From a virus, in UHGV virus genome UHGV-1280364: a DNA stretch of 18,393 nt; one strand, given 5' to 3'. Made by a program: the position numbers and the translations under genes. Shown piece by piece: positions 1,338-1,607 of this stretch (within the stretch, counting starts at the first letter, position 1; every line of letters begins with the position of its first letter). The notes under the pieces are model-generated. The model was not told where the DNA came from and searched no databases. It saw only the letters and a program-made list of their open reading frames with translations.

Positions 1338-1607
1338 TCAACGTTTTTCCACTTCATTTTGAATTTGCTTAAGTAGCATATTTGTCTCGTCAAGCCTCTT
1401 GTTAATACGGTCAAGGCTTTCTACTAAATCGTTATGTGCATGTGATACTTCGTAATTTGAGACTGATTTTTTTTCCTCTATCGTCTTTGTCAATCGTTCC
1501 CCTGATTGATACATATTGATTAACGATGTAAAAATCACGAGCAAGCAAACTACAATGATTGCGCCAGACAAAAATTGTAAAGAACGATCAAGCAATGACA
1601 CCTTCAT
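1338..1607 (-). CDS. Small membrane protein (89 aa): N-terminal transmembrane helix plus predicted coiled coil, function unknown
   Basis: Start ATG overlaps the arc stop as ATGA (1607..1604), suggesting translational coupling. Hydrophobic segment [24 protein letters not shown] followed by a charged helical tail. No family recognised. Confidence 0.5.

Follow-up and report, generated by a model that had tools for sequence, protein, structure and literature searches.

The immI region of phage P22 is a textbook regulatory circuit that combines two repressors with an antirepressor and one of the earliest antisense RNAs to be described, and it is usually drawn as arc followed directly by sar and ant. 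The virus genome UHGV-1280364 raises the question of what an additional open reading frame (ORF) is doing inside this circuit. The DNA analyzed, a stretch of 18,393 nucleotides (nt) referred to here as the window, comes from the late-operon and immI portion of a P22-like phage or prophage and runs opposite to the customary P22 map. Between arc and ant, at positions 1338-1607 of the minus strand, lies an ORF of 89 amino acids (aa), ORF89. The best overall explanation, and one that we regard as fairly probable, is that ORF89 is a genuine accessory cassette in a dedicated immI slot, expressed as a pulse from the promoter Pant and encoding a membrane protein. ORF89 is not a one-off insertion; it is one occupant of a slot that is used by at least seven unrelated genes. 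The features of the slot and the surrounding circuit are as follows, with expectation values given as E.

340-1275, minus strand: ant, antirepressor of 311 aa (P22_AR_N, E = 2.3e-42; P22_AR_C, E = 1.3e-29)
1241-1269, plus strand: Psar promoter, located by correspondence with the P22 annotation and one base different from it
1276-1343, plus strand: full-length sar antisense RNA (Rfam RF00262 and P22 alignment)
1308-1339, plus strand: sar terminator stem-loop; its U-tract is the complement of the last codons of ORF89 (GAAAAACGT), with the ORF89 TGA at the base of the stem
1338-1607, minus strand: ORF89, 89 aa, ATG start, cargo family A, PHROG 27312 (ORF listing, PHROG profile, same-slot homologs, and the ratio of nonsynonymous to synonymous substitution, dN/dS)
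1350-1433, minus strand: codons for residues 59-86 of ORF89, heptad-repeat (coiled-coil) segment (heptad count; continuous helix in the AlphaFold2 model)
1467-1474, minus strand: A8 homopolymer in codons 45-47 of ORF89
1512-1574, minus strand: codons for residues 12-32 of ORF89, transmembrane helix (Kyte-Doolittle; LSGAIIV invariant across the family)
1602-1665, minus strand: left conserved arm, the 3' end of arc, with a Shine-Dalgarno-like run, GAGAGAGGGG, 8-14 nt before the cargo ATG
1604-1607, minus strand: ATGA, 4 nt shared by the arc TGA and the ORF89 ATG
1604-1762, minus strand: arc, ribbon-helix-helix repressor of 52 aa with a cargo-associated C-terminal tail (Pfam PF03869, E = 1.8e-27)
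about 1779-1801: Mnt operator, identical to P22
1802-1830, minus strand: Pant promoter, TTGACA-17-TATATT (promoter scan)
about 1805-1825: Arc operator, identical to P22
1853-2101, plus strand: mnt, repressor of 82 aa, divergently transcribed (ORF listing; P22 and CUS-3 annotations)

The immI circuit is intact despite ORF89. There is no difference from the annotated P22 sites in Pant, in the overlapping and divergent Pmnt or in the Arc and Mnt operators, and sar and Psar are nearly identical to their P22 versions. The arc gene aligns with that of P22 over nearly its full length, with differences mainly in the last few residues. Downstream, ant has its own ribosome-binding site and a leader that is the same as in P22 except for a few bases. 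The original prediction, made from the letters of the DNA, had a complete ORF fill the space in which P22 encodes sar, with its ATG overlapping the arc stop. The ORF and the overlap are as described, on the minus strand, which had been left unstated. However, sar is not displaced. A search of the arc-ant interval for sar signals, as had been proposed, found the full-length RNA at 1276-1343 on the plus strand, downstream of ORF89, with an Rfam RF00262 score of 90.1 bits against a gathering score of 43 and a match to model positions 1-68 of 68. The 3' end of sar overlaps ORF89 by 6 nt, corresponding to the stop codon and last codon of ORF89. The regulatory roles of Mnt, Arc and sar are those given in the P22 record annotation, in Villafane et al. 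2008 (PMC2629481) and in PMC12922286; according to the P22 record and PMC12922286, Pant is the promoter repressed by Mnt to maintain lysogeny.

That ORF89 is an insertion relative to P22, as predicted, was borne out by alignment. When the arc-ant interval was compared by megablast with 50,697 phage records, 56 matched, including P22, epsilon34 and UAB_Phi20, and all of them matched in two pieces with ORF89 missing. Approximately 265 nt of the window are missing from P22. The insertion starts within the last few codons of arc (the P22 protein ends in SFKKEGRIGA and the tail in the window differs) and ends at CGTTGA/AGCCCC, at the foot of the sar terminator hairpin. ORF89 was present in 6 of 109 IMG/VR loci, an unbiased set, and in 14 of the 271 complete E. 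coli genomes whose match takes in the sar terminator. Otherwise collinear phages thus differ in the presence or absence of ORF89, as is the case for a moron.

Several comparisons indicated that ORF89 does not travel with its neighbors. The arc and ant alleles of phage EC.P3, Salmonella phage S.Kent 1-2-1 and E. coli 19SZHZ803Rt are quite unlike those of the window; in this neighborhood they have in common with it only positions 1260-1665, at about 93% identity, a segment that consists of the 3' end of arc, ORF89 and sar. The synonymous divergence (dS) of ORF89 from a divergent subfamily of 83 aa is about 0.75, whereas the flanking arc and ant are saturated. Within that subfamily, loci L013 and L151 have ORFs that are 90% identical beside arcs that are 54% identical. 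Therefore, ORF89 has a history of its own. Furthermore, E. coli VR50 has an unrelated gene of 73 aa, without a transmembrane segment, between the same two junctions.

A survey of the slot was carried out in IMG/VR using the sar hairpin as an anchor, and the contents of the interval from arc to the hairpin were classified at 109 loci. The slot was empty at 58 loci, held a 12-codon deletion remnant at 4 and held a gene at 47 (43%). The occupied slots hold seven unrelated families of 57-89 aa, distributed as follows.

family A (ORF89, 89 aa): 6 loci
family B (67 aa, Cys-rich): 17 loci
family C (57 aa): 10 loci
family D (73 aa): 7 loci
family E (74 aa, Cys-rich): 3 loci
family F (80 aa): 2 loci
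family G (60 aa, ClpX-type zinc finger): 2 loci

In all seven families alike, every cargo gene starts 4 nt before the arc stop, with ATGA or GTGA, and ends with A-rich codons, complementary to the U-tract of the sar terminator, and a TGA at the hairpin base. The Arc protein beside cargo always ends in DSLK(R/K)(E/D)G(V/I)x(V/I). Arc beside an empty slot ends otherwise, except beside the deletion remnant, where it ends in DSL(R/M)REGITV. The left arm is common to carriers of other cargo or of other arc alleles, and full-length sar abuts the cargo in five other carriers tested. The cargo families are spread over three Arc clusters and at least five Ant clusters. The slot is thus bounded by the arc stop codon and the sar terminator, and at least seven unrelated genes have been exchanged in it independently of the arc and ant alleles. 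The exchange presumably takes place by recombination in the two conserved arms, the arc tail and sar, and these junctions would explain how the cargo moves.

Four of the loci (L033, L063, L117 and L128) carry the 12-codon ORF, VIRLDAAKKSKQ, which is an internal deletion of family C with both junctions kept. This indicates that cargo is lost by deletion and not by clean excision. At all loci with a sar hairpin, any gene preceding sar, whether arc or cargo, stops within 7 nt of the hairpin foot, a regularity of the sequences that suggests that the circuit conserves the termination of translation directly at the sar terminator as a feature in its own right. In Pectobacterium odoriferum NCPPB 3839 (L150, NZ_JQOG01000023.1) positions 1536-1569 match the hairpin exactly, the sole such match in a species-representative genome, which suggests that P22-type immI is not limited to Escherichia, Salmonella and Serratia. 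This sequence may be the same as that of IMG/VR locus L051 (slot empty, d = 7).

The other cargo families differ from ORF89 in kind. No membrane segment was found in any of the six. Family G, at loci L056 and L083, matches the ClpX-type C4 zinc finger (PF06689, E = 4e-11); the copy at L083 has an internal stop codon. Families B and E have a CxxC...CxxC layout like that of family G, with a weak PF06689-type match for E (1.5e-3) and none for B. Two cargo families are small, weakly FlbD-like proteins. Free ClpX zinc-binding domains encoded by a phage could act as decoys for ClpX adaptors or substrates. In phage CUS-3 (L134, CP000711), positions 2369-2766 are annotated only as "bsq2; boundary sequence" and contain an unannotated arc, a family B gene and full-length sar. 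The unannotated Arc ends in DSLKREGVMV, and the family B gene, at 2501-2704, encodes 67 aa and has the ATGA overlap. Since CUS-3 has an arc, the remark in PMC2629481 that it lacks one appears to be an annotation gap. Single cargo genes have been annotated as hypothetical proteins (Emek orf73, EC.P3 XOD30081 and RefSeq WP_001555392). No description of a defined slot within the arc-ant operon, of its junctions or of an overlap shared by unrelated genes was found in the literature, and arc and ant are not mentioned in the accessory-gene preprint of Silas et al.

ORF89 is a real gene under purifying selection, as judged from its pattern of substitution. Close copies, 91-100% identical, occur in the phages EC.P3 and S.Kent 1-2-1, in 13 contigs from IMG/VR and in 14 of 5,426 complete E. 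coli genomes; E. coli APEC O2-211 has a copy with the same DNA sequence. The ORF is intact in all 13 of the IMG/VR copies and in all 14 of those from complete E. coli genomes. The 83-aa subfamily (P0009, P0011 from Serratia marcescens, and P0012) is 40-54% identical to ORF89. A phmmer search across 1.84 billion representatives returned one true distant relative and a profile search added two; a further match, L149, was rejected as a false positive caused by a short motif within a helicase. Every member of the family is flanked by ant and by an arc of 52 aa, with which it shares the same 4-nt overlap, and no relative outside the arc-ant slot was found among the phmmer and profile search matches. 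The dN/dS ratio is 0.44-0.53 between the subfamilies and 0.29 within the 89-aa group. The only indel in the family alignment is one of 7 codons, in frame, and identity by codon position is 0.65/0.78/0.56, so that the third position is the least conserved. The ORF is therefore neither a conserved part of immI nor lacking in coding conservation, and its rarity, its varied arc and ant neighbors and the purifying selection support the earlier view that it is cargo carried within the immunity circuit.

ORF89 is predicted to encode an inner-membrane protein that crosses the membrane once. The transmembrane helix and coiled-coil tail that had been noticed at the outset were upheld by a Kyte-Doolittle peak of 2.79 (19-residue window, residues 12-30), by L, I, V or M at 7 of 8 heptad a/d positions within residues 59-86, and by an AlphaFold2 model in which residues 5-88 form a single unbroken helix with a mean predicted local distance difference test score (pLDDT) of 81. 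A lipoprotein or a cleavable signal peptide was also considered and rejected; the hydrophobic core has about 20 residues and the sole Cys is not conserved. Residues 1-89 of ORF89 align with positions 1-89 of the 89 in the PHROG 27312 profile (E = 6.5e-61), a family with no recorded function. Searches of Pfam, NCBIfam, PADLOC and PDB profiles gave nothing significant, only sub-threshold coiled-coil noise.

Conservation within the ORF89 family is uneven. Of the 28 invariant residues, 20 fall in residues 1-44, and conservation is centered on the N-terminal tail, the transmembrane helix with its LSGAIIV sequence and a juxtamembrane motif, SG(E/D)RL..IE. In the coiled-coil part the heptad positions are kept and little else is conserved. 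The conserved membrane-proximal half suggests a specific membrane partner, which the tail, the helix and the juxtamembrane motif probably contact, while the variable C-terminal heptad repeats probably drive oligomerization.

Most copies of ORF89 that are linked to a P22-type arc contain the A8 tract; other alleles read AAAAGAAA. In the database entries P0005, P0007 and P0008 the tract is A7, and the frameshift leaves a product of 60 aa; sequencing errors, decay or slippage-based on/off switching could account for these variants. A promoter-like site, TTGACA-16-AAAAAT (10/12), lies inside ORF89 at 1493-1466 of the minus strand, where it faces ant and overlaps the A8 tract. It is altered in the alleles that lack the tract and is probably a chance match. 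If the site were active, it would give rise to ant transcripts free of Mnt and Arc control.

The anatomy of the locus suggests how ORF89 would be expressed. The scan for promoters and terminators found no sense-strand terminator between Pant and ant; the only terminator belongs to sar, on the opposite strand. Upstream of the ORF89 start there is one weak extra promoter-like match (1803 to 1774, 9/12), and this overlaps the Pant/operator region. Since the cargo has no credible promoter of its own, it is likely to be transcribed from the strong Pant as an arc-ORF89-ant message. Ribosomes finishing arc would restart at the overlapping AUG, by termination-reinitiation at AUGA, so that the output of ORF89 would be proportional to that of Arc. 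In a lysogen Mnt would hold Pant off, and after infection Arc would soon shut it off; ORF89 would thus appear in a brief burst when a cell has just been infected or derepressed. Because sar covers only the ribosome-binding region of ant, ORF89 should escape control by sar. According to PMC2629481, late transcription proceeds from gene 16 to gene 9 and passes over the immI region. Late-operon transcripts crossing immI towards the tailspike gene would make a second, late round of ORF89 synthesis possible.

A speculative proposal for the role of ORF89, held with low confidence and resting on its architecture and regulatory context, is that it is directed at the envelope during infection, for example by blocking the entry of competing-phage DNA or neutralizing a membrane-bound host factor, and not at lysogenic conversion.

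Several points weigh against this account as a whole. Transcription from Pant, translational coupling, the timing of the pulse and escape from sar are inferred from anatomy and from the established biology of P22. The membrane topology of ORF89 is ambiguous when judged by its flanking charges. ORF89 has no homolog of known function, and its biochemical role is for that reason a guess. The other six cargo families lack a membrane segment, and the slot consequently gives no common functional theme. Moreover, the closest pair of the 83-aa subfamily gives a dN/dS of about 1.1, on very few substitutions; taken with the 60-aa frameshift variants, this means that some copies of ORF89 may be decaying.

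It was considered whether ORF89 is instead a classical lysogenic-conversion moron, such as a SieA-like superinfection exclusion gene that the prophage would express for the protection of the lysogen. The location of a small membrane protein in the "ant moron" region, which in P22 houses sieA (P22 record; PMC2629481), would suit this explanation, as would the presence/absence polymorphism among relatives. However, ORF89 has no terminator and no credible promoter of its own, only the weak 9/12 match upstream, and therefore fails the classical definition of a moron. Its start overlaps the arc stop, Pant is repressed by Mnt for lysogeny and the Mnt operator here is identical to that of P22. ORF89 resembles neither SieA nor any PADLOC model in sequence and has no Pfam or annotated PHROG match. 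Expression from the prophage to protect the lysogen was thus judged unlikely.

Slightly less likely still is a late function, in which ORF89 would be made by read-through of the late operon and would modulate lysis or envelope disruption in the manner of an i-spanin or antiholin. The N-terminal transmembrane helix and coiled coil resemble Rz-type i-spanins, late transcripts pass through immI as described above, and sar would not block translation of ORF89. The match to PHROG 214, "Rz-like spanin", is weak (E = 0.048); it is not significant and is typical of coiled-coil composition, and no Pfam or NCBIfam spanin match was found. Furthermore, ORF89 lies in immI and outside the lysis cassette, there is no embedded or adjacent o-spanin lipoprotein ORF, the ORFs overlapping 1338-1607 lack a lipobox, and the sister cassettes in the slot are unrelated and have no membrane segment.

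That ORF89 is non-functional as a protein, whether a remnant in decay or spacer DNA tolerated in the arc-sar interval, was considered improbable. The absence of a known domain, the frameshift variants at the A8 tract and the dN/dS of about 1.1 in the closest pair of the 83-aa subfamily would be in keeping with decay. Against this, copies that are 40-54% identical, across genera, have kept the frame, the slot and the 4-nt overlap with a dN/dS of 0.3-0.5 and an in-frame indel, and none of the 13 IMG/VR or 14 complete E. coli copies is disrupted. A type I toxin-antitoxin-like pair, with ORF89 as a small membrane toxin under the overlapping antisense RNA sar, is the most improbable of all, because, although a small hydrophobic protein whose gene overlaps a cis-antisense RNA at its 3' end invites the comparison, the overlap is limited to 6 nt (the stop codon and the codon before it), the pairing target of sar is the ant leader, sar is present in unaltered form where the slot is empty or the cargo is free of membrane segments, and 89 aa with a long polar tail is atypical of type I toxins.

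The remainder of the window analyzed around the immI region contains the following genes, of which the three unknown genes beyond mnt are on the plus strand.

1-240, minus strand: N-terminus of the tailspike
2144-2743, plus strand: ORF of 199 aa, PHROG 18235, no known function
2961-3380, plus strand: YafO-family toxin-like protein (PF13957, E = 2.2e-11)
3403-3732, plus strand: hkcB homolog of 109 aa, 51% identical to CUS-3 HkcB (E = 6e-36)
3733-5844, minus strand: gene-16-like ejection protein, with more virion genes beyond

The 109-aa protein had been said to share the architecture of ORF89. This holds loosely, in that it has heptad repeats and an N-terminal hydrophobic stretch, but the stretch is much weaker (1.35 versus 2.79 in ORF89), and homology was rejected for lack of sequence similarity (BLASTP E = 2.7) and assignment to different PHROGs. 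The hkcB gene is named and uncharacterized, and adjoins gene 16 in HK620, epsilon34 and CUS-3. The 199-aa and YafO-like genes occupy the position of P22 sieA/orf59a and are also paired in CUS-3 (ECRS218_0007/0008), in locus L007 and in E. coli 19SZHZ803Rt; the pair may be a toxin-antitoxin or defense module expressed in the prophage. A perfect 200-nt direct repeat, at 2590-2789 and 2823-3022 with a spacing of 233 nt, duplicates the junction of the two genes, which leaves truncated ORFs of 30 and 50 aa and the full-length genes intact. It could be a real tandem duplication or an assembly artifact. In the related locus L007 the two genes overlap and there is no duplication.

In about 43% of the sampled relatives an exchangeable small gene is a seventh element of the immI operon, probably coupled to arc in translation. 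The slot would provide candidate effectors of the infection phase as a clearly delimited group that is simple to manipulate and whose expression program can be predicted. If it is true that the cargo genes are counter-defense, exclusion or host-takeover factors, the conserved arc tail and the sar hairpin would offer a simple genomic anchor for finding more.

One of the closest known systems is P22 immI. The window has all of its canonical parts, with identical promoters and operators, homologous Arc, Ant and Mnt, and a full-length sar. In P22 the arc stop is 4 nt from the sar terminator, whereas in the window a 267-nt gene is interposed and the last seven or so residues of Arc are replaced, KKEGRIGA becoming KREGITV. 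The "ant moron" is handled as one undivided region in Villafane et al. 2008 (PMC2629481), and in the available part of that paper the slot, its junctions and the overlap are not described. The sister cassettes in Emek (orf73) and vB_EcoP-611R6 (family D), CUS-3 (family B) and phiv205-1 (family C) are identical to ORF89 in their left and right junctions, in the 4-nt overlap with arc and in their stop at the sar hairpin, but are unrelated in sequence and lack a transmembrane segment.

With respect to the protein, the small bitopic membrane proteins of other phages that have early or envelope roles, such as T4 Imm and Sp, SPO1 gp56 and lambda Rz, provide a comparison. Some of these proteins are made early and target DNA entry, cell division or the envelope. 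Like ORF89, they combine an N-terminal transmembrane helix with a short extramembrane helical domain; no sequence or profile similarity was detected, and the likeness is architectural only.

With respect to the layout of the operon, the comparison is with anti-CRISPR/Aca operons, which are reportedly the subject of work by Stanley et al. (2019, Cell) and Birkholz et al. (2019, NAR). There, as appears to be the case in the arc-sar slot, small, variable and exchangeable genes lie beside a conserved autorepressor under a strong promoter that gives a burst followed by shut-off. At immI a conserved autorepressor and, next to it, seven exchangeable families of small genes lie behind a single promoter. 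Neither for ORF89, in Pfam, PHROGs and PADLOC, nor for the other cargo, in Pfam and PHROGs, was homology to known Acr proteins found. The immI repressor differs in being a ribbon-helix-helix protein encoded upstream of the cargo, and a second repressor, Mnt, and an antisense RNA are also involved. By analogy, it is put forward tentatively that the arc-sar slot serves offensive accessory genes as a dedicated site of pulsed expression and is equivalent in function to anti-CRISPR/Aca operons. Arc, as autorepressor, would limit the burst from a very strong Pant, and the seven or more cargo genes would encode host-takeover or counter-defense effectors made together with the antirepressor within minutes of the start of infection. 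On this reading ORF89 would be an unusual effector, anchored in the membrane and directed at a defense or entry component that is itself membrane-bound.

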